Assembly: GCA_963815095.1 (NCBI GenBank)
Contig: CAWFFH010000003.1
Span: 640,001-704,000 of the forward strand
Length of the DNA: 64,000 nt
Source: Candidatus Bathyarchaeota archaeon
GTDB taxonomy: Archaea > Thermoproteota > Bathyarchaeia > Bathyarchaeales > Bathycorpusculaceae
Direction of reading: 5' to 3'
Part shown: positions 23,660 through 36,144 of the stretch, in pieces
Layout: every line of letters begins with the position of its first letter
Position numbering within the stretch: position 1 is the stretch's first letter
Notes under the pieces: model-generated
The model's database searches: none
Told to the model about the DNA's origin: nothing
What the model saw: the letters and a program-made list of their open reading frames with translations, nothing else
Program-made: the position numbers and the translations under genes

Positions 23660-25246
23660 ATGAGCGCAGAAGAAAAACTCCAAAAAGCCATAGAGACATC
23701 TATTATGGCGGGTTATCAATTAAATAGCGAAGCCTTCGAGTTTCTCACTCAAAAAGCAGAAACTAACGACCCTGTCCTCATTATGGACTTGGCTCTTGCG
23801 AGAATCCAAGAGTTGCATGATAAACCGATGTTTATAGAAAAAAGCTTTCTAGAAGCGCTTTTGCAAGCCGCTGTACCTGCGCCACAACTTCAAGTCCCCG
23901 AGCGACAATACAGTCCACAACCAAGTATTCCGCAACAGCAATTGCGGCCACTTGAGGAATATCAAGATTCCAACGAAACCGAGTTTTATCCCTTCGCCAA
24001 AGATATACCGTCAGAACTCAATATTATCGATGATGCTACAGGAAAACTTACTTCGAATGGTACACTAGACGAGTACGTACTCTATTTTCAGGACCGCTTC
24101 AAACGTATCGAGAAACTGTTAAGACAAAGGATGGATGTTAAGGCAGCAACCTCAATTACGGAAGCCCTCAAGTCGCCACCAAAAACTAAGCTCAAAATCA
24201 TCTGTATGCTAACTGAGAAGAGGGACTCAAAAAATAACACAATCTTATCCGTCGAAGATTTGAATGGAAGTGCAACAATTCTTGTTTCTCAAAAAGCTCC
24301 TGAAGAAGTAAAGAAAAAAGCGCTCACTCTTCTGCCTGACCAAGTTTTCTGCGTAGCGGCTGTTAAAACAAGAGGCGACCTGCTGATGGCTGAAGACATT
24401 ATTTTTCCTGACGTAGGAAAAAAGATACCTCTGCGTGCGCAAGAACCCGTTTACGCTGTCCTTACATCAGACATCCATATTGGAAGTACAAAATTTACAA
24501 AAGAATCATTCAAGCGCTTTATCCTCTGGCTGCGAGGCAAATATGGAACCCCAGAAATGCGCCAAATAGCCGGCCGAGTAAAATATCTTCTCGTTGCGGG
24601 CGATATTGTAGATGGAATAGGTATTTATCCTGGTCAACAAAATGAGCTAACCATTCGAGATGTACATAAACAGTATAATTTTGCTATCAAATATCTTGAA
24701 AAAATTCCAGATTACATTGAAATTGTTTTGTCTCCAGGTAACCATGACGCCGCACGCAAATCATTACCTCAACCAGCAATACCAGAAGGATATCTGACAG
24801 AAATTCAAGGCAAAAAAAATATCCACTCAGTTGGCAGCCCATGTTACCTCAGCATTCACGGCGTAGAAGTACTCATGTATCACGGCAGAAGCCTCGACGA
24901 CATAGTTTCTGTTATTCCTGGAATGGATCATCAGCACCCAGAAAAATCCATGCGTCTACTCATGCAAGGACGACACTTAGCTCCTGTATACGGTGGAAAA
25001 ACCATGCTTTCCCCAGAAAGCCGCGATTATCTTGTAATTGATAAGGTTCCAGACATTTTTCATGCAGGGCACGTACATGTTAATGGACTTTGTAATTATC
25101 GCGGAGTACTTGTTGTGAACTCGGGCGGATGGCAAGACCAAACGGATTATATGGAAAAATTAGGGTTAGTTCCTACTCCAGGAATGGTGCCAGTGGTGAA
25201 TCTGCAAACACTACATACCACCGTTTTAGATTTTAATTTAAGTTAG
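23660..25246 (+). CDS. polB: DNA polymerase D small (exonuclease) subunit DP1
   Basis: SDIHIGS, AGDIVDGIGIYPGQ, PGNHD, YHGRSLDD, RHLAP, HAGHVH, NSGGWQ. Confidence 0.97.
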   Translation: MSAEEKLQKAIETSIMAGYQLNSEAFEFLTQKAETNDPVLIMDLALARIQELHDKPMFIEKSFLEALLQAAVPAPQLQVPERQYSPQPSIPQQQLRPLEEYQDSNETEFYPFAKDIPSELNIIDDATGKLTSNGTLDEYVLYFQDRFKRIEKLLRQRMDVKAATSITEALKSPPKTKLKIICMLTEKRDSKNNTILSVEDLNGSATILVSQKAPEEVKKKALTLLPDQVFCVAAVKTRGDLLMAEDIIFPDVGKKIPLRAQEPVYAVLTSDIHIGSTKFTKESFKRFILWLRGKYGTPEMRQIAGRVKYLLVAGDIVDGIGIYPGQQNELTIRDVHKQYNFAIKYLEKIPDYIEIVLSPGNHDAARKSLPQPAIPEGYLTEIQGKKNIHSVGSPCYLSIHGVEVLMYHGRSLDDIVSVIPGMDHQHPEKSMRLLMQGRHLAPVYGGKTMLSPESRDYLVIDKVPDIFHAGHVHVNGLCNYRGVLVVNSGGWQDQTDYMEKLGLVPTPGMVPVVNLQTLHTTVLDFNLS

Positions 25247-26484
25247 GTGCCGGAACTTGGGTTTTTGCGGATAGCTTGGGGTGAATAGTCAATCAATCGG
25301 CTAAAGCGATTATCACCGACAAAGACATCTCTAATCAAGCTGCGAGAGATTTCCAGTCTAATTTTTTTGGTTCTTCCGTATCGACCCATGCTTACAACTT
25401 TGGCGTTTACAAGACCCATCGAATCAAGTTCGTTAACCAAAGTGCCTAGACGCCGTTGCGTTAGAAGCCCAGCGCCCATCTCACCGCATAATTCATTGTA
25501 TATATCGTAGATTTCCCCGGTTGTCGCACTTGACTTATTTAGATGGTAAACACTCAAGAGCACCAACTTTGAATGCAAAGTTAAATTATTGAGTGCTTCG
25601 ACAACTCGGTTGTGCTCAATATGCTTCTCAGCCTGACGCACGTGCTCTTCAGTAATAGTTTTTGCACCAAGCCGCTCCGCCACTTCTCCAGCAACACGCA
25701 ACAAATCTAGAGCTCGCCTAGCGTCTCCATGTTCTGCGGCAGCTAAAGCTGAGCAAATGCTCAATGCTGAATCTGATAAGACACCATCTTGGAAGGACAA
25801 CTTTGAGCGTTCAAGAAGTATATTTCGAAGTTCTCCAGCATCATATGGTCTGAAGACCAGTTCTTCTTCGCTAAGTGAACTGAAGACTCTTGGGTCCAAG
25901 AATTCTTTTAGGCGCAAATCGTTGGATATGCCGATTAGGGCAACTTTGCTTTTGGTTAATGTTTCGTTTATTCTTGTTAACTCATACATGAAGCCGTCTC
26001 CATGTTCTTTGATCAAGGCGTCAACTTCATCCAAAATAATGATGAATATTATTTTAGATTGATCTAACCCTATGCGGAACCGGTCAAAAACTTCGCCTGC
26101 CGACAAACCAGTGAAGGGAATGGACAAGCCTACACTTTGGCTTAGCGCCGCGAAAACCCTGTATTCTGAACCAGTCATTCGACAATTAATGTAGCAAAAT
26201 TTTACCTGTGCACCATATTCTTTTGCTTTGGATTCTAAATGGCTTAGCACATATTTTGTTACGGCAGTTTTTCCTGTTCCTGTTTTTCCGTAAATGAAAA
26301 TGTTGGAGCATCTTGAATCTCTTAGGACTGGAGCAACAGTTGCACCGAGCAATCTAATCTGGTCTTCTCGATGTGGAAGTTTATCCGGAAGATAATCATG
26401 CCTTAAGACCTCTCGATCTTTAAACAGTTTAACTCCGTTTACGAAGTTTTCGAATACATCATCTAGTACGCTTGAATTACCCAT
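25243..26484 (-). CDS. cdc6: Cdc6/Orc1 replication initiator
   Basis: LPHREDQI, GKTGTGKT, ILDEVD, DPRVFSSL, HGDARRALDLLR, GRYGRT wing. Confidence 0.98.
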   Translation of the reverse strand: MGNSSVLDDVFENFVNGVKLFKDREVLRHDYLPDKLPHREDQIRLLGATVAPVLRDSRCSNIFIYGKTGTGKTAVTKYVLSHLESKAKEYGAQVKFCYINCRMTGSEYRVFAALSQSVGLSIPFTGLSAGEVFDRFRIGLDQSKIIFIIILDEVDALIKEHGDGFMYELTRINETLTKSKVALIGISNDLRLKEFLDPRVFSSLSEEELVFRPYDAGELRNILLERSKLSFQDGVLSDSALSICSALAAAEHGDARRALDLLRVAGEVAERLGAKTITEEHVRQAEKHIEHNRVVEALNNLTLHSKLVLLSVYHLNKSSATTGEIYDIYNELCGEMGAGLLTQRRLGTLVNELDSMGLVNAKVVSMGRYGRTKKIRLEISRSLIRDVFVGDNRFSRLIDYSPQAIRKNPSSGT

Positions 26485-27110
26485 TTGCTTTCCCTCTTAT
26501 TCTTCAGAGGCAACACCGTTATTTCTTGTGGAACAGATAAAGGCTACACTACAAAAAACTGGTCTTAGAGCACAACAATCCTAAAAAACATTGAAAATAG
26601 CCAATATCTTTCAAATAAAGCGAGAGCACACACACACCACAGTTTCTACTGGAGGAAAAAGCTTGGTAAAAGAAAAACACTATTTATTGTATATATAATA
26701 ATATACTCTGATAGGTAAGGGGCAATTTGATATATTAATAATTGTTATCAAAGAAATTAGACAAATCATCTACAATAATTTTTTCAGCCTTTCCTAACTT
26801 CTTTTTGTCCCAAATACTTCGAGCGGAAACATAGGGGCCTGTGCGAGCGATTTTTCCATGGTAAATTACACTTGTTCAAGCTATTACATCTTGTTTTCTT
26901 TCATAACTTTCTTAATTTCTCAAGGAAGTTAATTTTCAACTTTTTAGTTAAAGTTTCTCGAAAAAACCGTTCACAAAATTGTGAATACATGTGAAATGGC
27001 AATGAAGTTGTCGCTTTATTGAGTCTATTTTCTGATAAATTACCCTTTTCCTGTCTTTAACAAGTGAATAAGGCACCCCTACACTTCTACTGGAAAAGCA
27101 TAACCAAGGC
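26485..27110. other. Replication origin (oriC) with ORB-like boxes and AT-rich DUE
   Basis: ORB-like boxes: 26511-26534(-) GTTCCACAAGAAATAACGG; 26627-26655(-) CTCCAGTAGAAACTGTGGTGTG; 26817-26837(+) CTTCGAGCGGAAACATAGGGG; 27074-27096(-) TTCCAGTAGAAGTGTAGGGG. AT-rich tract at ~26680-26760; directly upstream of cdc6. Confidence 0.88.
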
Positions 27111-27270
27111 GAAACTGAATTATTTCAAGCATTTCGTTATACTGTGAAGCTGGTAATAACAGAATAACTTCAATTCTTAGCTATTACAGTATTATAAGCT
27201 TGATAACTGCCTATTTCATTCATCAGTTTCACCATAACAGCTATAAGGTGTGAAGTACTGACTTGTGAAC
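26970..27270. repeat. GTGAA/TTCAC motif cluster
   Basis: TTCAC 26970, 27228; GTGAA 26981, 26991, 27064, 27144, 27250, 27265; TTCACAA-aa-TTGTGAA inverted repeat at 26970-26985. Confidence 0.55.
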
Positions 27271-27291
27271 AATCCTTAAGGTGTGCAGCAA

Positions 27292-27720
27292 ATGCCCGCT
27301 CGTAAAATGCGCATTGAGCTTTTCGATAGCGATGGTAATCGATATACTATTGCTTTTGAGGGTCAAGTGACTCGTGACAAAGCTCTTCGCCTTTTGGATC
27401 TGGTAGAGTTGCTTGGCAGTGCACCTGGAGAAGGCCTCACTACAAATGCAGGAAACACTTTACCAAATAAGGTTCTATCACGGTTCGAGAAAGTCCAGGT
27501 GGTTATCCACAAGAATTTCCCCTTGATTTGGTTCTCCTCAAAAGACATCCAGTCCATTTATGAACAAGAACTTAAAGAACCGGTAAGTCTCAGCACAGTT
27601 TCAACCTACCTTTCCAGGATGGCTGTAAAAGGTATGTTGCTTAGGACCGGAGGCCAAAACAACCTCAAGTACAAGACTGCCCCAAACATCTCCCCTGCTA
27701 TTAAACAACGCATAAAATAA
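27292..27720 (+). CDS. Origin-adjacent protein with C-terminal winged helix
   Basis: N-domain RIELFDSDGNRYTIAFEGQVTRDKALRLLDLVELL; wHTH FSSKDIQSIYEQELKEPVSLSTVSTYLSRM..KGML. Confidence 0.85.
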   Translation: MPARKMRIELFDSDGNRYTIAFEGQVTRDKALRLLDLVELLGSAPGEGLTTNAGNTLPNKVLSRFEKVQVVIHKNFPLIWFSSKDIQSIYEQELKEPVSLSTVSTYLSRMAVKGMLLRTGGQNNLKYKTAPNISPAIKQRIK

Positions 27721-27779
27721 CTCCCAAGGTTCACAATCATTTCACAAAAAGACAATTATTGAACCCTTTAAACCGTTAA

Positions 27780-28583
27780 CTATGTTTGAGCGGAGGGGTT
27801 CACGACTTTTTGCAGAAGAGCTTCCATCTCCTTTTTGATGCTGTACCTGAAAGGAATTTTACCAGCCTCCCTCTCCAAGTATCCCTCTTCATAGAGTTTC
27901 TTCATTAACCGAGCTGTATGCTCCCTACTGAGTTGCACTATTTCTTTGATTTCAGGAGCCGTCTTCGCTCCCTCTTTAGCGAGGAGTTCTAAGACTGTGA
28001 TTTCCGTTTCGGTTAAAGCTGCCAACGCTTTATCCCGTTTTATGGGTATAGGCGGTAGGACAATGTCGTTCCTGGTTTCATTTTGTGGTGGAACAACTGA
28101 TATTTTCTTAATTTGCTCTTCAAACACTGTTATTTTATTTCTCAAAGTTTCTTGTGTAGATTCGATGTCTTTTAGTTTTGCTTCTATTCCTGAGAGCCCA
28201 GACAGGACTGTGCTGTTGTTTTGTGTGTAGTCGGATAAGTTTTGTGTAACAGTTTGTGAAATAGCTTGATGTGATTGGCTGAGTGCACCGAGTTGTTGCT
28301 CGATGTTCTCTGCTTTCCTGAAACTCACGTTTGCTGTGTTATAGCTTCCTTCAACTCTTGATACCATTGTATCAAACTTGTCTGATTCACGTTTAAGTTC
28401 ACGATTAAAACTCAGCACGATATCTTCGATAAAGTTTTTGGCTTTTTCGTATTCTTTGTGTGCAAGGCGTACCTGCTTATAGTACTCATATGCAGCTATT
28501 ACTGTAACAGCTAGTAGAACGCCCAAGATTAATGGTGTGAGATCAATCGTGATTTTTTTCTCCGTGATTTGTATGTGACTCAA
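27780..28583 (-). CDS. Membrane-anchored coiled-coil protein with C-terminal MarR/ArsR-like winged helix
   Basis: TM LILGVLLAVTVIAAY; heptad-rich helix from ~aa35-160; LTETEITVLELLAKEGAKTAPEIKEIVQLSREHTARLMKKLYEEGYLER...FRY; start codon uncertain. Confidence 0.87.
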   Translation of the reverse strand: MSHIQITEKKITIDLTPLILGVLLAVTVIAAYEYYKQVRLAHKEYEKAKNFIEDIVLSFNRELKRESDKFDTMVSRVEGSYNTANVSFRKAENIEQQLGALSQSHQAISQTVTQNLSDYTQNNSTVLSGLSGIEAKLKDIESTQETLRNKITVFEEQIKKISVVPPQNETRNDIVLPPIPIKRDKALAALTETEITVLELLAKEGAKTAPEIKEIVQLSREHTARLMKKLYEEGYLEREAGKIPFRYSIKKEMEALLQKVVNPSAQT

Positions 28584-28692
28584 CCGTGATTTATGGTGAT
28601 TTCAGTGGTTGCATCACATATCACAGTATTTCCATGGAGTAATAAGGTTATCGGTGACATGAAATAATGTAATCTATGACATCACACATCAC
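28537..28692. repeat. GTGAY/RTCAC half-site array 1
   Basis: GTGA(T/C/G) at 28537, 28549, 28564, 28575, 28586, 28596, 28654; ATCAC at 28613, 28620, 28681, 28688. Confidence 0.75.
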
Positions 28693-28841
28693 AATAATAC
28701 CCTAATAGCTCTCCGTCAAGACTTTCATTATGAACTAAAGGCTGAGGATTAGCCTTATTTTGCCAATTAATACTTAAAATAGTCATTTCAGAATAACTTA
28801 ATTTAATGTATCAAAACACTGAAAAAATCATGGAAAAATCT

Positions 28842-28873
28842 GTGATTTGTGACGTCACAAAGGCTCTTGTGAT
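28842..28873. repeat. 16-bp perfect palindrome TTTGTGACGTCACAAA with flanking GTGAT
   Basis: 28846-28861 is self-complementary; GTGAT at 28842 and 28869. Confidence 0.75.
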
Positions 28874-29352
28874 GGGCTAGAAAGCCGTTTCAGGCTTGTT
28901 TCAAGCTCATTTCGAATGATTTCAATGACTTTTAGATGGTCTTTTAGTTCCTCTTCCTTTCCCGGTATGTTCTGGTGAGCCTCCACATAATCGTGTAGTT
29001 TATTGGCTATTTCGAGATACGGGTCAAGAGTAGAGCTCTCAAACACACCCAAATACCCCAAAAGTAGGACTGTATAGATCGATTTTATAACGTTTTCTTT
29101 GGACTGTCTTAAGGTCCTATTAAAAGAACCGCGGCTTATTTTAGCCTTTGTTAAGCGTAAAGCAGCCTTTTCATCGTAATTTAGCTGTTTGTCTGATATA
29201 TTTTCGGCCAAAACGTCAATTAACAGTGTTTCAAGCTGTGTTTTTGTTAATTGGCTGTTTTTAGCCAGGACTTGCACAATGGGGTCGTTTAATGCCCCGC
29301 TTAACCATGCTGTAACACCGTCTTTTAACTTCAAATCTTCGTGTTCCTCCAT
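28855..29352 (-). CDS. Conserved origin-adjacent helical protein with HTH-like segment
   Basis: SQLTKTQLETLLID...YDEKAALR...ISRGSFNRTLRQSKENVIKSIYTVLLLGYLG. Confidence 0.82.
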   Translation of the reverse strand: MEEHEDLKLKDGVTAWLSGALNDPIVQVLAKNSQLTKTQLETLLIDVLAENISDKQLNYDEKAALRLTKAKISRGSFNRTLRQSKENVIKSIYTVLLLGYLGVFESSTLDPYLEIANKLHDYVEAHQNIPGKEEELKDHLKVIEIIRNELETSLKRLSSPSQEPL

Positions 29353-29724
29353 AGTCTTAATGGATACAGTTTTGTATACTAATCCATGTTTTTAACCTTT
29401 GCACTAGCCAAAAGCCTCAATTTCTCGTTTGGAAGAAGCTAAAATTGAAGTCGTTTTACGCAAACAAAGCGTTTTACTAACTTTATTGGCTATTCGTGGC
29501 AAGAAAAGCCCATTTAACATAATAAAGGCTAATTTCTTGGCAATTTCTTGTGTTAGCACGCCTCAACTTTACACAAAAAATGCTCTTTTGCAAACCCTCC
29601 TGAAAGTAAAAACTATTCATTTTGGCAATTTTAAAGAAATGTCTCTAACTTTTTCTTGTTTAATATCTTGCTTAAACACAGTTTTACTGCAACAACTCCC
29701 TGTAACAATATCCAAAAAAACCGC

Positions 29725-29832
29725 GTGACATCACCAAATCTGCGTGATTTTACCATAAGTCACTTGATATCACGATGATGTGATACACTTGTGATGTTAA
29801 ACTTCAACGTCCCGTTGTGAGTGTGATATCTC
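29725..29832. repeat. GTGAY/RTCAC half-site array 2
   Basis: GTGACATCAC 29725, GTGAT 29744, GTCAC 29759, TTGATATCAC 29764, GTGAT 29780 and 29791, GTGAG 29817, GTGATATCTC 29823. Confidence 0.75.
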
Positions 29833-30664
29833 AGATTTGCTCTGAAAGGTGCTTTAATTCATCGAAAAGTTCAGGTCGTAAGTCTCTCAAAGTCGGGATA
29901 AATGTCTCAGCTGCTCTTAAATCACCAAAATCCACGTCACAGAAGACAAAATCTTCTTCATCGTACTTTGCTTTGGCTGCAATGTCGCCCGTTGGACAAA
30001 CAAGTCGGCTCCCTCCCCAAAACTGTAGTCCATCTTCAACACCTGCAAGGTTAACGTACGCAAGAAATGCCGTGTTTTCAAGTGCTCGAGCAGAAGTTAG
30101 GATTTCAAAGTAACCTCTCCTTACAGCCGGGGATGCGGAAATACAAACAATCAACTGTGCACCCTTGAGGCGTGTCAGCCTAAATACTTCTGGAAAGAAG
30201 ACATCGTAGCAAATAGATAATCCAATATTGCCTAATTCTGTTTGGAAAGTTGCTGTTTCATACCCTGGGCGAAAATACCTTTTCTCTTCAAAGACGCTGT
30301 GAGTAGGCAGATACATCTTGCGGTATTTACCGATTAAACCTTTGGGACCAATGAAGACAGCTGTGTTAAAGATTGTTGCTTGGGTTTTTTTGCTTAACTC
30401 CGGCATCCCAAAAATAATGTGCATACCCGTCTTCTTTGCTAAAGCCTCAATTTTATGGGTTGAAGGTCCAGGTATCGGCTCCGCAAGCTCGTAAACTTGA
30501 TCTAAGATGACGTAACCCGTTAAAGACATCTCCGGAAAAATAATTAGGTCTGCACCTTGCCCCTTGGCTTTGATAGTTAGTTCTTCTATCTTCTGCAGAT
30601 TCATGCTTTTGTTTTCGCGTTTGCTACTTATTTGGGCAAGAGCGAGTCTAATCTTATCTTTCAT
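29831..30664 (-). CDS. Carbon-nitrogen hydrolase (nitrilase family), probable glutaminase partner of NadE
   Basis: FPEMSLTGY, YRKMYLP, ICYDVFFPE Glu-Lys-Cys triad; co-oriented with nadE. Confidence 0.92.
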   Translation of the reverse strand: MKDKIRLALAQISSKRENKSMNLQKIEELTIKAKGQGADLIIFPEMSLTGYVILDQVYELAEPIPGPSTHKIEALAKKTGMHIIFGMPELSKKTQATIFNTAVFIGPKGLIGKYRKMYLPTHSVFEEKRYFRPGYETATFQTELGNIGLSICYDVFFPEVFRLTRLKGAQLIVCISASPAVRRGYFEILTSARALENTAFLAYVNLAGVEDGLQFWGGSRLVCPTGDIAAKAKYDEEDFVFCDVDFGDLRAAETFIPTLRDLRPELFDELKHLSEQI

Positions 30665-30676
30665 GCAGGTTCCACT

Positions 30677-31519
30677 TTAATATGTGTGTCTTGGAAGCCT
30701 AAAATCGTTTCCAACGGTACGGTACCCAATCTTTGGAGCGATGGGCATTCTTCTTTTATGTTCGTTTGCGAGCCATCTACTCTTTACTTTATCTACTTTA
30801 CTTTTTTCAACGGTGAGTTGCTCCGCGATTTCTTCTGGAGACAAGAACCGTTCGAGTCCATAGAGAATGAGATCCAAGGTTTCAAATTTGATTCCGAGTT
30901 CAGACTCTGCCAGCTGATTAGGCCAAAGTGCTGGCGTTGACGGCTTTAGGACGAGCTCCTTTGGGATTCCTAAATGCAATGCAAGTTTGCGAACCTGCGT
31001 TTTATATAAATCCATTATTGGAGCAATGTCTGCTGCAGCGTCTCCCCATTTGGTGAAGTACCCCATCATTGTTTCGGATTTGTCGGAGCTGCCGCAGACT
31101 ATTCGATTTTGTTTATTGGCGAAGTAGTAAAGGTAAAGCATCCTCGTTCTTGCTTTGATGTTTCCTTTGCAAAGTCTGTTGGATTGGTCAAACACAGGTA
31201 TGGCGCTATAAATGCCATTGAGGGCATCTGACATATCACAGATTTGCGTTTTTATATTAAACTGCTGAGCGACAGTTTTCGCGTCGTCGATGTCTTTTTG
31301 GTTAAAATTCTCATTCTCGGGCAACATTAGACCCAAGACGTTTTCTCCTCCGATTGCGAGGCTTGAAAGCGCCGCTATGGTTCCACTATCGATCCCTCCA
31401 GAGAGCCCAAGCACGATTCCTTTTGCTCCTGCATTTTCAACGTATTCTTTAATGAAACGGCAGATTCTTGTTTGAGCCTCAGAAAAATCGATCTCTAACA
31501 GGTAAGGCGTTAACTTCAT
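30677..31519 (-). CDS. nadE: NAD+ synthetase
   Basis: GLSGGIDS, GNIKARTRM, GYFTKWGD, DLYKTQV, HKR. Confidence 0.96.
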   Translation of the reverse strand: MKLTPYLLEIDFSEAQTRICRFIKEYVENAGAKGIVLGLSGGIDSGTIAALSSLAIGGENVLGLMLPENENFNQKDIDDAKTVAQQFNIKTQICDMSDALNGIYSAIPVFDQSNRLCKGNIKARTRMLYLYYFANKQNRIVCGSSDKSETMMGYFTKWGDAAADIAPIMDLYKTQVRKLALHLGIPKELVLKPSTPALWPNQLAESELGIKFETLDLILYGLERFLSPEEIAEQLTVEKSKVDKVKSRWLANEHKRRMPIAPKIGYRTVGNDFRLPRHTY

Positions 31520-31617
31520 TTGCTATGGCAGCCTCATTATTGATGGTTAGTAGGCAAGTATTTAAGGACAAGCATAAATATTATGAACATTACCAGACGA
31601 ATGTAGAAGGTTATTGT

Positions 31618-31881
31618 ATGGGGCGAAGAAGGAAAAAAGTTGTTCATATACCAAAGAAACGTTTACCAAAGTTCTTCTCTTGCCCTATATGCGGAAAAGA
31701 AACTGTACGTGTAGAAATCGTCCGAGAAGACGGTGGTCACTCTGTTGCTCAATGTAGCAGCTGTGGTCTTAAGGAAGAATTTCCAGTTAAATCCGCTCAA
31801 GGCGAAGTTGACGTTTACTGCATGTTAACCGACCGAGTTTACGGCACTCAAAAAAGAACTCCAGTAATAAAAAAAGAGTAA
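31618..31881 (+). CDS. elf1: Transcription elongation factor Elf1
   Basis: Start re-assigned to ATG 31618: MGRRRKK...FSCPICG...CSSCG...VDVYC..D. Confidence 0.9.
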   Translation: MGRRRKKVVHIPKKRLPKFFSCPICGKETVRVEIVREDGGHSVAQCSSCGLKEEFPVKSAQGEVDVYCMLTDRVYGTQKRTPVIKKE

Positions 31882-31897
31882 CTGAAGGACCACTTGT

Positions 31898-32644
31898 ATG
31901 CTAGGACCTATTGAAAGGTACTTGCTTGAAAAAATAAAAAAAGACGGCTCAATTCACATAACCCTTATAGATCCAGAAAAAGTGACAGCCGCAAACGCTT
32001 CAAGCATCGCTGAAAGTTCCAAAAACAGTGGAACCGCCGCCATCATGATTGGAGGCTCAACATTTGTTTCTGAGAACCATCTTGATGCTGTAGTGAAAGC
32101 CATTAAATCCAAAGTAGATATTCCCACTATTCTTTTTCCAAATAACGTAACTGGAATAAGCAGCCACGCAGACGCGATATGGTTTATGTCACTGCTAAAC
32201 TCAGTCGACCCCTACTTTCTCATAGGCGCCCAAATCTTGGGAGCTCCCCTCGTTAAAAAGTACGGTTTGGAACCGATCGCGATGGGCTACATTATTGTTG
32301 GCGACGGAGGTACAGCAGGCATAGTGGGAAAAGCAATCTCGGTACCTTACAACAAGCCTGAACTTGCAGCAGCTCACGCTCTTGCAGGCCAATACCTTGG
32401 AATGCGTTTTATCTATCTTGAGGGCGGTTCTGGAGCGGCAAATCCCGTGCCTCCTGAAATGATTCGCGCCGTTAAGCATTTGATTGACATTCCACTCATC
32501 GTTGGAGGGGGCATTAAAACTAGAGAGCAGGCGTTCACCGCAGCTTCAGCTGGTGCAGATATAATTGTTACAGGAAACGTCACTGAATCAAGTGATGCCA
32601 ACAAAAGAATCTCTGAAATCATAGCCGCCATAAGAAAACATTAA
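31898..32644 (+). CDS. Geranylgeranylglyceryl phosphate synthase
   Basis: HITLIDP, IMIGGST, FMSLLNS, YLEGGSGA, VGGGI, IVTG. Confidence 0.95.
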   Translation: MLGPIERYLLEKIKKDGSIHITLIDPEKVTAANASSIAESSKNSGTAAIMIGGSTFVSENHLDAVVKAIKSKVDIPTILFPNNVTGISSHADAIWFMSLLNSVDPYFLIGAQILGAPLVKKYGLEPIAMGYIIVGDGGTAGIVGKAISVPYNKPELAAAHALAGQYLGMRFIYLEGGSGAANPVPPEMIRAVKHLIDIPLIVGGGIKTREQAFTAASAGADIIVTGNVTESSDANKRISEIIAAIRKH

Positions 32645-32742
32645 AACAAATATTCTCACTTTTAGTTGTTGGAAATATTTTCTTTAGCTTTTAGAAAGCC
32701 AAAATAACCCATCACTATATATCTTGCAGGAGAGCTGTCAAC

Positions 32743-35700
32743 TTGAACATCAGCAAGGGTTATAAAAACTACGTTGAAACTATGGAAAATGAGCTTAAAC
32801 GCTTGTATGCCATTAGTGATAACGCCCGATCCAAAGGTTTGGATCCAGCCCTAAAAACAGAATGTATTATAGCACAAGACATCGCTGATTTGGTGGAAGG
32901 GTTGGTTGGACCCAAGGGCGTTGCGCTGAGTATCCGGGATTGGAGCACCAAGATGCCCCGGGAAGAAATAGCCTTCAAAGTAGCTGAAGAAATTACTGTT
33001 GGCAAATTTGGTCAAATGGATCCTGAAAGAGCAGCGGAACAGGCGATTCGGACGGCTCTTGCAATTTTTACTGAAGGCTTAACAGCAGCGCCTATTCAAG
33101 GCATCGCGCAAGTTAAAATCAAGACAAATGCTGACAGAACTCGCTATTTGGCAATTTACTTTGCTGGACCGATCCGTTCAGCAGGCGGAACAGACCAAGC
33201 CTTGACTTTAGTCGTGGGGGACTATGTCCGTCTACAGCTGAACTTAGACAAGTATAAACCAACTGAAGACGAAGTCTCCCGCTTCGTCGAAGAACTAAGA
33301 CTCTATGAACGTTCCGTGGGTCGTTTCCAATATCACATACCCGATGAAGAACTCAGAAAAGCCCTAAATCTAATTCCCGTTGAATGCACTGGAACAGAAT
33401 CAGATCCAGTCGAGGTTTCATCCTACCGTAACTTAGAAAGGGTCGAAACTAACCGCGTTAGAGGCGGGGCGCTGAGAGTCGTAAACGATGGAATCGTTGG
33501 ACGCGCACAGAAAGTCTATGTGATAATTGATAAGCTGGGTTTTCAAGGTTGGGAATGGCTCAAAAATTTCAAAAAGAAATCTGAGAAGAAATCGGGCGGT
33601 TTCATGGATGATGTGATTGCAGGGCGACCGATTTTCGCTTTTCCTTCTAGACGCGGTGGATTTCGTCTTAGGTATGGTAGGTCCAGAAACACAGGGCTCT
33701 CAGCTGTAGGTATTCATCCTGCCACGATGCTTGTGGTTGAAAGTTTCCTTGCTGCTGGTACCCAGATGCGTTTGGAGTTGCCCGGGAAAGGCGGTGTTAC
33801 GATGCCTGTGGATAGCATTGAGCAACCTGTGGTATTGCTAAATGATAACTCGGTTGTTCGCGTGTCGCTTGAAAACTATGCTGAGGTTAAGGGTAAAGTC
33901 CAAAAAATCCTGTTTTTGGGTGATATGCTTATAGATTTTGGCGATTTCCTCTATTGCAACAAGGCACTTCCCCCATCTGGGTACGTAGAGGAATGGTGGG
34001 CAAAAGACTTGCAAAACGCTATTCAGGGAAAGTACGGTTCTGACTATCAGAAGGCGGCTCAAGCAGCAAATCTCCTCTTAGATAAGATAGAGAGTTTTGT
34101 GTTGGATCCATTTGCAAACAAGCCAACAGTCAAAGAATCCGTAGCATTGAGTTCAATTTTAGGCATACCTCTTGCTCCCAATTGTACATTATTTTGGGGC
34201 AATCTCTCAAACGTGCAAGAGCTCGAGTTGCTGAGAGAGTGGTTAACAACTTGTGAAGTAACAATAGAAGCCGGTTTTGCGATCAAGATTGTGGGTAAAG
34301 CTAGCGATGCCGCGCTAAGTTCTCTCAGGAAAATATTCGTTCAACACAAAATCGTAGACGGCAAAATCATGCTTGTGAGTGAAGAAGCTGCTGCTTTCGC
34401 GTTCTGTCTTGGTTACGGTAAAACAAAGATTGTTGAAGCAAGTTCTACTCTGGAAATGCTGAGTCTGCTATCAGATGTGCAAGTCAAAGATAAAGCTCCA
34501 ACTTATGTAGGAGGGCGTATGGGTAGACCCGAAAAAGCCAAACACCGCGAAATGAAACCCCTTGTCCATGTGCTTTTTCCAGTCGGTTTGAAAGGAGGTT
34601 CACATCGTGACCTTATGGAGGCGTCACGGCAAGGGCCAGTTTTTGTAGAGTTGGCTAAACGTAAATGCCCCAGCTGTAAAAGCTACACTATTAAAGTAAA
34701 ATGTCCCACCTGCGAATGCGAAACCATTTCTGAGAAGATTTGTCCAAGATGTGGCAGAACGGTGAAAGATGCCGGTTGCCCAACCTGCAAGACAGATGGG
34801 GTTATGTATCAGCGTCAACCCATTAACTTCAAAGAATTAATCGACAACGCTAGCACCAACCTTGGGTATCCGGTGCCTAAAATGTTGCGGGGTGTTAAGG
34901 GTCTAACAAACCTCGACAAGACTCCCGAAAACATAGAAAAGGGTATCTTGCGAGCAAAGCATGGTCTATCTGTCTACAAAGATGGCACCATACGGTTTGA
35001 CGCCACAAATGCCCCATTAACACATATCACGCCAGCTGAAGTGGGAGTCTCCATCGAAAAGATGTATCAAATGGGCTATCTCTCAGATACTCATGGATTG
35101 CCTCTAACAAACCCCAACCAAGTTTGCGAACTAAAAATCCAAGACGTCGTAATTCCATGGCGTGCTGCGGAATACTTTATCCAAATTGCCGCCTTCATCG
35201 ACGACCTCTTAGTACGGGTCTACAAGCAACCTGCATACTATAATGTCAAGAAAGCAGAGGATATGGTTGGTCACTTGCTTTTCGGGTTGGCTCCTCATAC
35301 GTGTGCATGCATTTTGGGAAGAGTTGTTGGTTTTACTGACCGCAACGTGATTTATGCCCATCCCATTTGGCATTCGGCAAAGCGTCGGGATTGCGACGGC
35401 GACGAAGACGCCATCATGTTGGGGTTGGATACACTCCTTAATTTTTCAAGAGTATTTTTGCCTGCGCAAATAGGCGGGATCATGGATGCACCCATTCTGC
35501 TGATTCCCTTCGTAAATACTAAAGAGGTACAAAGGCAAGCCCACGACTTTGACGTCAGCGCCACCTATCCGATCGAGTTTTATAATAAAACTTTAGAGAA
35601 ATATGATCCTAGACCCGCCAGCGCCATGATGGATGTAATCAGCCACAGATTGGGCACGGAAGCCCAGTTTGAAGGCTTCCAATATACCACCCCCTGCACA

Positions 35701-36144
35701 AGTATCAATCTTGGCAACGCCAACAGCTCCTACAAGGAATTCAAATCTATGATAGATAAGCTGCATATGCAATTAGAGTTGGGTGAAAAGATTGATGCCG
35801 TCGATGCTAGACGTGTAGCGCTGAAAGTTTTGAATACACATTTTATGCGTGACATTGCCGGTAACTTGCGTGCCTTCTCAACGCAGGGGTTCCGCTGCAA
35901 GTCATGCAACAAAAAGTTTCGCCGATTGCCCCTCAAAGGAAAATGCCCGTCCTGCGATGGAAAACTAACACTTACTGTTTACCGTGGCGGCATTGAAAAG
36001 TACCTTGTTGCAGCGCAGGAACTAGTCGATAAATATGGTTTGCCAAAATACTATACACAGCGCATGGACTTAATCAAAGAAGAGATAGCTACGATGTTCG
36101 ATAATAAAAAGCCAAAACAAGCCAAGCTTTTCGATTTTAATTAG
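32743..36144 (+). CDS. polC: DNA polymerase D large subunit DP2 (no intein)
   Basis: YFAGPIRSAGGT, GFRLRYGRSRNTG, GRMGRPEK, KDGTIRFD, HSAKRRDCDGDED, C-terminal zinc fingers. Confidence 0.98.
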   Translation: MNISKGYKNYVETMENELKRLYAISDNARSKGLDPALKTECIIAQDIADLVEGLVGPKGVALSIRDWSTKMPREEIAFKVAEEITVGKFGQMDPERAAEQAIRTALAIFTEGLTAAPIQGIAQVKIKTNADRTRYLAIYFAGPIRSAGGTDQALTLVVGDYVRLQLNLDKYKPTEDEVSRFVEELRLYERSVGRFQYHIPDEELRKALNLIPVECTGTESDPVEVSSYRNLERVETNRVRGGALRVVNDGIVGRAQKVYVIIDKLGFQGWEWLKNFKKKSEKKSGGFMDDVIAGRPIFAFPSRRGGFRLRYGRSRNTGLSAVGIHPATMLVVESFLAAGTQMRLELPGKGGVTMPVDSIEQPVVLLNDNSVVRVSLENYAEVKGKVQKILFLGDMLIDFGDFLYCNKALPPSGYVEEWWAKDLQNAIQGKYGSDYQKAAQAANLLLDKIESFVLDPFANKPTVKESVALSSILGIPLAPNCTLFWGNLSNVQELELLREWLTTCEVTIEAGFAIKIVGKASDAALSSLRKIFVQHKIVDGKIMLVSEEAAAFAFCLGYGKTKIVEASSTLEMLSLLSDVQVKDKAPTYVGGRMGRPEKAKHREMKPLVHVLFPVGLKGGSHRDLMEASRQGPVFVELAKRKCPSCKSYTIKVKCPTCECETISEKICPRCGRTVKDAGCPTCKTDGVMYQRQPINFKELIDNASTNLGYPVPKMLRGVKGLTNLDKTPENIEKGILRAKHGLSVYKDGTIRFDATNAPLTHITPAEVGVSIEKMYQMGYLSDTHGLPLTNPNQVCELKIQDVVIPWRAAEYFIQIAAFIDDLLVRVYKQPAYYNVKKAEDMVGHLLFGLAPHTCACILGRVVGFTDRNVIYAHPIWHSAKRRDCDGDEDAIMLGLDTLLNFSRVFLPAQIGGIMDAPILLIPFVNTKEVQRQAHDFDVSATYPIEFYNKTLEKYDPRPASAMMDVISHRLGTEAQFEGFQYTTPCTSINLGNANSSYKEFKSMIDKLHMQLELGEKIDAVDARRVALKVLNTHFMRDIAGNLRAFSTQGFRCKSCNKKFRRLPLKGKCPSCDGKLTLTVYRGGIEKYLVAAQELVDKYGLPKYYTQRMDLIKEEIATMFDNKKPKQAKLFDFN

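Follow-up and report, generated by a model that had tools for sequence, protein, structure and literature searches.

Gene order and the predicted origin

The DNA examined here is a 64-kb window (the whole stretch that was analysed, whose positions are used throughout) of a contig in a 2.69-Mb Bathyarchaeia genome. Beside the predicted replication origin (oriC) of this window stand three small genes, here called g1, g2 and g3, and the DNA around g2 carries dense arrays of the half-site GTGAY, which are the subject of this study together with g2 itself. An earlier note on this DNA had placed three helix-turn-helix (HTH)-like genes at 27292-27720, 27780-28583 and 28855-29352, and all three were found there as open reading frames (ORFs). 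The gene order is PhoU/AbrB-like, small subunit of PolD, Orc1/Cdc6, an 807-bp spacer with origin recognition box (ORB)-like elements, g1, g2, spacer A and g3; beyond g3 follow spacer B, a C-N hydrolase, NadE, an Elf1-like zinc ribbon, GGGP synthase and the large subunit of PolD. The features at the centre of the locus are as follows.

25243-26484, minus strand: Orc1/Cdc6 initiator gene (Pfam Cdc6_lid 8.4e-25, Cdc6_C 2.5e-24, AAA_22)
26485-27291, no strand: predicted oriC spacer, with ORB-like elements and an AT-rich stretch (pattern search)
27292-27720, plus strand: g1, 142 aa, with a conserved N-terminal beta-beta-alpha-like region and a C-terminal BlaI/MecI-like winged helix (weak)
27780-28583, minus strand: g2, with an N-terminal membrane helix, a variable helical middle and a C-terminal winged helix-turn-helix (wHTH) of MarR/TrmB type
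28855-29352, minus strand: g3, 165 aa, all-helical in an AlphaFold2 (AF2) model, with no Pfam family

The position of oriC is predicted from the adjacent cdc6 gene, from two opposed ORB-like elements found by pattern search (26819-26837, minus strand, and 27077-27095, plus strand), from the ORB core CCCCTACACTTCTACTGGA, which occurs once in the whole genome, and from the same ORB being retained upstream of g1 in relatives. A third ORB look-alike is located near 26637-26655 (plus strand) and the AT-rich stretch at about 26670-26760; the locus thus has the arrangement expected of an archaeal oriC, namely an Orc1/Cdc6 gene beside ORB repeats that flank an AT-rich stretch. GC skew was flat and uninformative on the origin position, and a search for RNA families gave only one sub-threshold match at chance level in the origin spacer (RsaOG, E 0.42). 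In 1-kb windows the GC content of the region is 36-41%, slightly below most of the window as expected from its spacers, and does not mark an island. The replication block from the PolD small subunit, Cdc6 and oriC to GGGP synthase and the PolD large subunit (23660-36144) keeps its order from Bathyarchaeia to Nitrosopumilaceae (L060-L063).

The g2 protein

At its N-terminus, g2 has a hydrophobic 19-mer (about residues 14-32, Kyte-Doolittle 2.31), which is followed by basic residues and preceded in the orthologues by at most 13-25 non-conserved residues. Since the sequence after the membrane helix is rich in K and R (positive-inside rule), the C-terminal bulk of the protein would be cytoplasmic, and since at most 13-25 residues would lie outside the membrane, g2 has no sensor domain. 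The wHTH extends over about residues 186-250 and the protein terminates directly after it. Residues 190-249 match both TrmB (29.6 bits, cut-off 25.6) and MarR (29.2 bits, cut-off 24.6) above the Pfam cut-offs; matches to Lrs14 and Sta1 of NCBIfam were far under theirs. The recognition helix is SREHTARLMKKL, and the pattern (S/T)REHT(A/S)RLMKKL is near-invariant from Bathyarchaeia to Nitrosopumilaceae. The middle of the protein is poorly conserved and is probably a helical coiled coil, with only sub-threshold matches to Pfam families of coiled-coil type (EzrA, CENP-F_leu_zip) at residues 41-160. Thus, of the transmembrane helix, coiled coil and wHTH that had been read in g2, the first and the last hold, and the coiled coil stays at the level of these sub-threshold matches. 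The membrane helix is present in 24 of the 27 orthologues examined. The start codon of g2 is uncertain, because in several relatives stop codons interrupt the first ~15 aligned codons, and this uncertain region is the one that carries the direct repeats described below.

Density and grammar of the GTGAY arrays

More than 20 half-sites had been claimed for the spacers around g2, and we counted 22 GTGAY/RTCAC (24 GTGA/TCAC). Fifteen GTGA/TCAC sites, 14 of them GTGAY, lie at 28537-28873, and nine, of which eight are GTGAY, at 29725-29827. Part of these sites are coding, in the first ~12 codons of g2 and in the stop codon of g3. All 250-bp windows with at least four sites are found here (the next best has 3), so that the density is unique in the window, as had been stated. 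The enrichment holds also relative to the genome: with a mean of 0.45 sites per 200 bp, only four clusters in the 2.69 Mb reach 6, and the two origin-side clusters, which peak at 10 and 8, are the densest of them (the other two have 6). As these are the top two clusters of the genome and their grammar is conserved, the arrays are far beyond chance, and an origin by chance or composition was rejected, the grammar being kept at protein identities down to ~30%. The palindrome GTGAYRTCAC occurs four times in the genome, twice at this locus, and with four palindromes in total no regulon for it was found in the genome. An avoidance of the palindrome elsewhere in the genome was considered and was unsupported, the GTGA counts being inside the range of 12 permuted half-sites. 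The elements of the arrays are listed below; the promoter assignments are predictions.

28537-28600, plus strand: array A1, six direct GTGA repeats, conserved in orthologous spacers
28614-28624, minus strand: doublet TCACataTCAC with 7-bp spacing, at the g2 transcription start site predicted from the TATA-like box
28640-28649, minus strand: putative TATA-like box of g2, AACCTTATTA (TTAAAAG in relatives)
28654-28658, minus strand: GTGAC half-site at the putative B recognition element (BRE) position of g2
28676-28692, minus strand: triple site aTGAcaTCACacaTCAC, an imperfect palindrome with a 7-bp doublet, upstream of the g2 TATA-like box
28842-28873, plus strand: triple site GTGAtttGTGAcgTCAC over the g3 stop codon (28842-28858), an inverted copy of 28676-28692, with GTGAT at 28869
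29725-29827, no strand: array B, just 3' of the C-N hydrolase stop codon, conserved in the genus

The six sites of array A1, which spans the start codon and first codons of g2, are located at 28537 (GTGAG) and at 28549, 28564, 28575, 28586 and 28596 (GTGAY), with spacings of 12, 15, 11, 11 and 10 bp. The element at 28676-28692 has the perfect form GTGAYRTCACnnnTCAC in other families, and ~150 bp of AT-rich DNA separates it from its inverted copy at the g3 stop codon. Midway through spacer A, between the inverted triple sites, a GCYTTATTTT block (28760-28775) is conserved in relatives; a terminator-like T-run and an element of a promoter are both conceivable. The triple site at the g3 stop codon was found in 21 of 21 order-level loci, in 13 of 13 class-level loci with g2 and in none of six clean loci lacking g2. 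Array B, ~370 bp upstream of the g3 start codon, consists of the palindrome GTGACATCAC (29725-29734), GTGAT at 29744, TCAC at 29760 and 29770, and GTGAT at 29780 and 29791, with GTGAG at 29817 and GTGAT at 29823 at its right end. Together the arrays span ~1.3 kb of DNA at 1.5-2.8 kb from the last ORB, and overlap neither the ORBs nor the AT-rich region.

From the window and 20 order-level loci, the consensus of the half-site is T-GTGA-Y-n-T, which is near-invariant. Half-sites are combined as GTGAYRTCAC palindromes, as 7-bp doublets and as direct repeats 10-11 bp apart. Distances between neighbours in the same orientation have one maximum at 7 bp (genus 38 of 128, other families 20 of 49) and another at 10-11 bp (48 and 13, respectively), and head-to-head pairs peak at 6 bp from start to start, which corresponds to the 10-bp palindrome (20 of 50 in the genus, 19 of 27 in other families).

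Conservation in Bathyarchaeia and Nitrosopumilaceae

We detected g2 in 36 of 41 relatives. At the order level, 20 loci from 20 genomes have the same order g1-g2-g3 (two contig-cut loci are without g1), and GTGAY clusters are present at both homologous positions in all 20, so that the motif is indeed conserved in orthologous spacers; the arrays are retained with g2 identities as low as 34%. The origin linkage that had been expected in relatives was also found, with Cdc6 within the fetched stretch in 17 of these 20 loci and the other three contig-cut. Of 20 class-level loci, 17 include Cdc6 in their 20-kb stretch. Most of the class Bathyarchaeia, as read from these genomes, shows the same gene order and arrays. 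Cdc6 is not adjacent in five genomes that belong to three other families, and its best orthologue there lies 11, 14, 22, 32 and 60 kb away from g3.

Nor is the module confined to Bathyarchaeia: gene order, arrays and recognition helix are also found in Nitrosopumilaceae (family f38, Nitrosarchaeum and Nitrosopumilus), with the order PolD small subunit, Cdc6, ORBs, g1, g2, g3, GGGP synthase and PolD large subunit and with GTGAT arrays. Cdc6 is in the stretch in four of five of these loci, and the fifth ends at a contig end. Among 78 Nitrosopumilaceae loci fetched, all 76 that were evaluated have 8-15 sites in 460 nt at the 5' end of g2 (background median 1.14). As for g3, it is single-copy in 87 of 95 high-quality genomes of the class, and in a phylum-wide sample 80 of 151 genomes have it.

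The arrays follow g2

The co-occurrence of proteins and arrays was determined in 34 loci outside the order, where a cluster was defined as at least five sites per 200 bp.

g2 with a recognition helix of REHT(A/S)R type: 21 loci, 21 with clusters
g2 with a diverged helix (SREHVSRILKNL twice, SKEHISRMLKRL once): 3 loci, 0 with clusters
g2 absent: 10 loci, 1 with clusters

In six class-level genomes without g2 at the locus, an alignment query found no match to the g2 wHTH genome-wide, and gave weak coiled-coil matches only. At such class-level loci g1 and g3 face each other directly with their 3' ends, and no palindrome is left at the g3 stop codon. The joint loss of g2 and the arrays was seen in at least four families. 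The arrays thus occur with a g2 of conserved helix, and the elements at g1 and g3 (described below) persist without g2; therefore, the arrays belong with g2. We consider it likely that g2 binds the GTGAY arrays, the two being a matched pair of protein and site.

The same data do not fit the earlier view of the three genes as a single module, since the arrays co-occur with g2 only, and g1 and g3 persist together without both. The idea that the three proteins share one motif as one system was likewise rejected, given that loci without g2 still have both the GTGAA bracket at g1 and the ATAC-N6-GTAT repeat at g3.

In family f50 (L066, 9872-10709, and L067), the g3 gene directly adjoins a short g2 gene of the same strand, as in an operon. 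This short g2 has 147 aa, with a membrane helix, a short helical part and a wHTH with the diverged helix SREHVSRILKNL; the locus is 32 kb from Cdc6 and GTGAY arrays are absent.

Arrays inside coding sequences and away from promoters

In seven order-level loci (L022-L025, L028, L030 and L031), the gene divergent from g3 encodes an aminotransferase (Aminotran_1_2 shown for L028). All seven of these genes have GTGA/TCAC at the same codons, with 3-6 sites in 111 nt, and four of them have the full pattern GTGAnnTCACnnnTCACn7TCAC, the architecture of which is that of the left half of array B. Six aminotransferase homologues in genomes lacking g2 have 0-1 sites in the equivalent 72 nt, and the amino acids differ there too. 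Similarly, in three class-level loci (L036, L041 and L050) hypF is located between g3 and g2, with maxima of 7, 10 and 4 sites per 200 nt; five hypF genes from genomes without g2 or not adjacent to g3 peak at 1-3, as does the one of the present genome (440 kb away). Where further genes separate g3 from g2 (five loci), the region upstream of g2 has 0-1 sites and the arrays stay at the 3' flank of g3; therefore, autoregulation of g2 is not universal. In Nitrosopumilaceae, sites are also found through the 3' half of the g3 coding sequence. These observations, small in number, suggest that the sites have been selected as positional DNA elements and not as operators only.

Comparison with known systems

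RacA of Firmicutes binds origin-proximal ram sites and attaches to the envelope through DivIVA. RicO is described as binding DNA through its N-terminal domain, which is followed by a coiled coil and a C-terminal amphipathic helix, and as having nine ricS sites within ~700 kb around oriC (bioRxiv 10.64898/2026.03.06.710092). RacA, RocS and RicO are the closest functional analogues of g2: a small HTH-type domain, a coiled-coil middle (a probable one in g2) and membrane attachment are combined in one polypeptide, the specific sites, which are candidates in the case of g2, are origin-proximal, and the proposed outcome is that origins are held at the envelope. The domain order of g2 is however reversed, with the membrane helix N-terminal and the wHTH C-terminal, so that an N-terminal HTH was not found. 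Neither was their mode of attachment: the anchor of g2 is an integral N-terminal helix, whereas RocS and RicO use a C-terminal amphipathic helix and RacA a contact with DivIVA. Furthermore, the DNA-binding fold of g2 is a winged helix of MarR/TrmB type, unlike those of the three bacterial proteins. It is by this architecture, and not by sequence comparison, that the archaeal g2 is set apart from them. By analogy and not by homology, we regard g2 and its arrays as an archaeal variant of the membrane-attached, site-specific binder with origin-side sites.

In the type II plasmid centromere ParR-parC, ParR is a ribbon-helix-helix protein and the repeats are phased around its own promoter. The g2 array resembles this system in being compact and phased at about one helical turn (10-11 bp at 28564-28600) around the binder's promoter, on both sides of the putative TATA-like box. 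AspA of pNOB8 is described as an archaeal wHTH protein that nucleates upstream of its own operon and then spreads (PMC5120986). As in ParR-parC and AspA, one complex could act both as centromere and as autorepressor. Unlike ParR-parC, SegAB and ParABS, g2 has no partition NTPase or ParB beside it, the neighbours being Cdc6, g1, g3, the C-N hydrolase and NadE. Unlike ParR, g2 is not a ribbon-helix-helix protein, carries its own membrane anchor and is encoded at a chromosomal origin-side locus. The likeness to SegAB (PMC8682754, PMC12139799) lies in a site-specific binder with sites beside its own genes and in a candidate role as archaeal chromosome organiser; the block has no gene for a SegA-type ATPase, and g2 differs by its architecture and membrane anchor.

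Transmembrane regulators (ToxR/CadC-like proteins and ArnR-type proteins of Sulfolobus; PMC10269533, PMC6396743) resemble g2 in that a single protein carries a membrane helix together with a DNA-binding domain, and in their location near target promoters. In g2, unlike in these, there is no extracytoplasmic sensor, the DNA-binding domain is C-terminal and the sites far exceed an operator. TrmB, MarR, Thaumarchaeota and Bathyarchaeota are not mentioned in the text of PMC10269533 (its supplement lay outside the search). No description of the present module was found in the literature searched (supplements, which could list such proteins, were outside the search); within that scope, the system is undescribed, as the earlier note had supposed.

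Proposed role of g2 and its arrays

We propose, with a probability of roughly 45%, that g2 and the arrays form a membrane-attached, self-regulating DNA-protein complex beside oriC with an anchoring or organising role. Dimers or oligomers of g2 would load side by side on the arrays, and since g2 would be held in the membrane, ~1.3 kb of DNA at 1.5-2.8 kb from the last ORB would be kept there. Occupancy of its own BRE, TATA box and start by g2 would result in negative autoregulation that sets the dose of g2, and the sites at both ends of g3 might modulate g3. The selected role would be origin-proximal anchoring or organisation, for segregation or for the control of initiation.

The architecture of g2 makes a link between DNA and membrane physically plausible, and an origin-anchoring role of the complex of g2 and its arrays is plausible as well. 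A membrane-integral protein that is bound to a specific locus tethers this locus, and the question then becomes which effect has been selected. In favour of anchoring we count the absence of a sensor domain, the presence of many sites at one locus, the sites in coding sequences and at 3' ends, and the phylum-wide position on the origin side.

Several points weigh against this proposal. The sites cover the core promoter of g2 and flank g3 in the manner of ordinary operators, and their layout over the BRE, TATA box and transcription start site of g2 suits autoregulation equally well. In one family (f35), three g2 orthologues are without the membrane helix and the arrays are still there, so that membrane anchoring would not be indispensable for the role of the arrays. 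Where Cdc6 is separated from the block by 11-60 kb, the arrays stay with g2 and g3 and not with Cdc6. The case for g2 as the binder is one of co-occurrence among related genomes, whose relatedness makes the counts overstate independence, and one locus is discordant (L047/G116), with weak clusters and one palindrome but no g2, in a genome that is 86% complete and at a locus that is partly masked. The sites of RicO and RacA are spread over hundreds of kb, whereas the predicted sites of g2 lie in ~1.3 kb around its own gene. The oriC itself is a prediction. Finally, there are seven matches of ParA/MinD type (PF13614) elsewhere in the genome.

The last point bears on a stronger form of the proposal, in which a compact centromere-like element of the chromosome and a membrane-integral wHTH protein, both conserved from Bathyarchaeia to Nitrosopumilaceae (ammonia oxidisers), anchor newly replicated origins and provide organisation or segregation independent of a partition ATPase in much of Thermoproteota. 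We regard this form as doubtful. The earlier statement that no ParA/SegA ATPase or ParB is present holds within the window, where neither PF13614 (ParA-like) nor PF02195 (ParB_N) was matched, and the profile search gave no ParB_N match at the cut-off; it does not extend to the ParA/MinD-type matches elsewhere in the genome. Because of these ATPases, independence from ParAB is unsupported and the label of a ParAB-independent system was not borne out.

One possible explanation other than anchoring is that g2 is a plain membrane-bound one-component transcription regulator, which represses or activates its own gene and g3 from the membrane or after proteolytic release. The arrays would then be elaborate operators and the attachment of DNA a by-product, and the position on the origin side would reflect the function of g3 and g1, or a slow decay of synteny. 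This would account for the half-sites at the BRE position, at the predicted transcription start site and upstream of the g2 TATA-like box, for the arrays at both ends of g3, and for the arrays tracking g2 and g3 rather than Cdc6. It would agree with the fact that g2 always occurs with g3 adjacent or within a few kb, that the two abut in an operon-like manner on one strand in two families, that the wHTH is of the type of MarR/TrmB regulators, and that the arrays of family f35 occur without the membrane helix of g2. Transmembrane regulators are, moreover, widespread in archaea according to PMC10269533. However, only ~13-25 residues of g2 would lie beyond the membrane, with no sensor domain, and at least 22 sites with none elsewhere in the genome would serve to regulate at most two small genes. 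Arrays at 3' ends and inside the coding sequences of neighbours would be unable to control initiation, and the five loci with inserted genes have 0-1 sites upstream of g2. We consider a purely regulatory g2 less likely than the proposed complex, and still a strong competitor of it.

An alternative possibility could be that the complex acts on replication: it might sequester or insulate oriC at the membrane, or titrate a factor, so that the complex, g1 and g3 would jointly set the time of initiation. Functionally this would be akin to E. coli, where oriC is sequestered at the membrane. The block of PolD small subunit, Cdc6, ORBs, g1, g2, g3 and PolD large subunit is conserved from Bathyarchaeia to Nitrosopumilaceae, the last ORB and the g1 promoter are ~135 bp apart, and in relatives the ORB core has a conserved GTGAA ahead of it. 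However, the GTGAY arrays are clear of the ORBs and the AT-rich region, and lineages without g2 keep the same origin layout, which makes this role improbable. A partition or iteron cassette left behind by an integrated plasmid or virus and fixed beside oriC can hardly be credited as the source of the module: the phased direct repeats flanking the binder's own promoter do recall plasmid centromeres and iterons, and the insertions in the block (a HerA-like pair, hypF, aminotransferase) are variable, but the block is chromosomal, single-copy and placed between housekeeping genes across the phylum, matches were absent for g2 in 72,556 plasmids and for g3 in 50,697 phage records, the neighbourhood has neither an integrase nor an att-like feature, and GC marks no island.

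The positioning and segregation of chromosomes are little understood in archaea outside Sulfolobus and haloarchaea. The locus described here offers a directly testable candidate, consisting of one protein, a 5-bp half-site with a fixed grammar and one target locus per genome on the side of the predicted origin. Some Nitrosopumilaceae can be cultured in the laboratory, and as they have the same module, a direct experimental test is feasible. Even if the tether fails, two phylum-wide, single-copy, origin-side HTH proteins (g1, and g3 without a sequence family) call for an explanation, the arrays within the coding sequences of unrelated genes represent an unusual selection on DNA in genes, and the lineages that lost g2 and the arrays jointly are a clean natural experiment. 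If the stronger form of the proposal is true, g1 and g3 would be further and older origin-side regulators.

The neighbouring genes g1 and g3

The promoter regions of the two neighbouring genes have elements of their own.

27228-27269, plus strand: putative g1 promoter region, with TTCAC (27228-27232), CTATAAG (27241-27247), GTGAA (27250-27254) and GTGAA (27265-27269)
29362-29399, minus strand: g3 promoter region, with the inverted repeat GGATACagttttGTATAC (29362-29379) and a TATA-like TTAAAAA (about 29388-29399)

The ORF of g1 opens at a GTG (27283), and orthologues begin with MPARK, which fits the ATG at 27292. Its match to Penicillinase_R (17.7 bits) is under the cut-off of 22.6; matches at E<=0.05 were obtained for 18 of 20 orthologues, the best at 3.5e-5. 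Profile matches in PDB were weak (2k4b, MecI, E 0.05-0.24). As a wHTH protein, which the earlier note had called it, g1 is therefore matched weakly in its winged helix and below the Pfam cut-off. The TTCAC-N17-GTGAA bracket around its TATA-like box is conserved in relatives, including loci that lack g2, and six GTGAA sites near g1 (27144-27265, 27731 and 27742) are conserved even without g2 and the GTGAY arrays. These g1-side sites are thus an element distinct from the array system. In relatives there is a conserved GTGAA element between the last ORB and the g1 promoter, which is a doublet outside the genus. Like the bracket, this element is kept in lineages without g2, so that the two are a recognition system of their own, possibly for g1 itself or belonging to an extended ORB.

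An AF2 model of g3 from an alignment of 97 sequences reached a pLDDT of 92.6 (a first model from 21 sequences was poor, with a pLDDT of 58). In VIA-align, residues ~34-97 matched HTH domains of sigma-70 region 4/LuxR type (2h27_D, Z 6.2, rmsd 1.7 Å over 54 aa), and further middling matches were 7vim_A (Z 7.1, 64 aa), 3vep_H (Z 6.3) and 9dvs_G (Z 6.2). Residues 103-165 form a helical hairpin that aligns with generic helical hairpins. Foldseek gave no match in PDB at E<=0.001, a profile search against PDB sequences gave nothing meaningful, and Sigma70_r4/GerE were matched neither by g3 at E<=1 nor among the 97 relatives at E<=0.01. A single lead came from Atlas (score 0.78), with 14% of the cluster carrying PF04545. 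With moderate confidence, g3 is probably an HTH protein with a dimerising hairpin. The description of g3 as a helical, HTH-like protein thus holds for the helices, and the HTH is indicated by middling fold matches with no sequence family.

Between the TATA-like box and the start of g3, the repeat GGATAC-N6-GTATAC is kept class-wide and in Nitrosopumilaceae, with or without g2 (L013-L052 and L060, 9826-9845), and its second position covaries (GC..GC, GA..TC, GG..CC). It fits either an operator for a dimeric protein or a hairpin in the 5' untranslated region. No regulon of the repeat was found in the genome, in which ATAC-N6-GTAT was counted 32 times (~72 expected) and its extended form 3 times (~3 expected). 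Judged from this conservation, g1 and g3 are an older origin-proximal pair with operators of their own, and their role is possibly in the regulation of the origin or the cell cycle.

Other features of the spacers

Spacer B was also considered as a decayed aminotransferase gene, which was rejected, there being no residual protein similarity outside the array. A long ORF at 29429-29728 (plus strand) is probably no gene, judged by its translation. A block of ~35 bp in spacer B (AACTTTACACAAAAAATGCTCTTTTGCAAAC, 29560-29600) is present at the same place in part of the genus (L013-L015) and absent in L016-L018. A query with a HerA-like gene, which belongs to an insertion seen in relatives, gave no match in the present genome. 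This insertion, located between g1 and g2 in 7 of 20 order-level loci (L016, 4979-7514; L027, 5018-7595; L023, L024, L025, L030 and L031), has two genes, which encode a protein of ~340 aa without a Pfam family and a HerA-like ATPase of ~515 aa (DUF87/HerA central domain, 5.3e-8).

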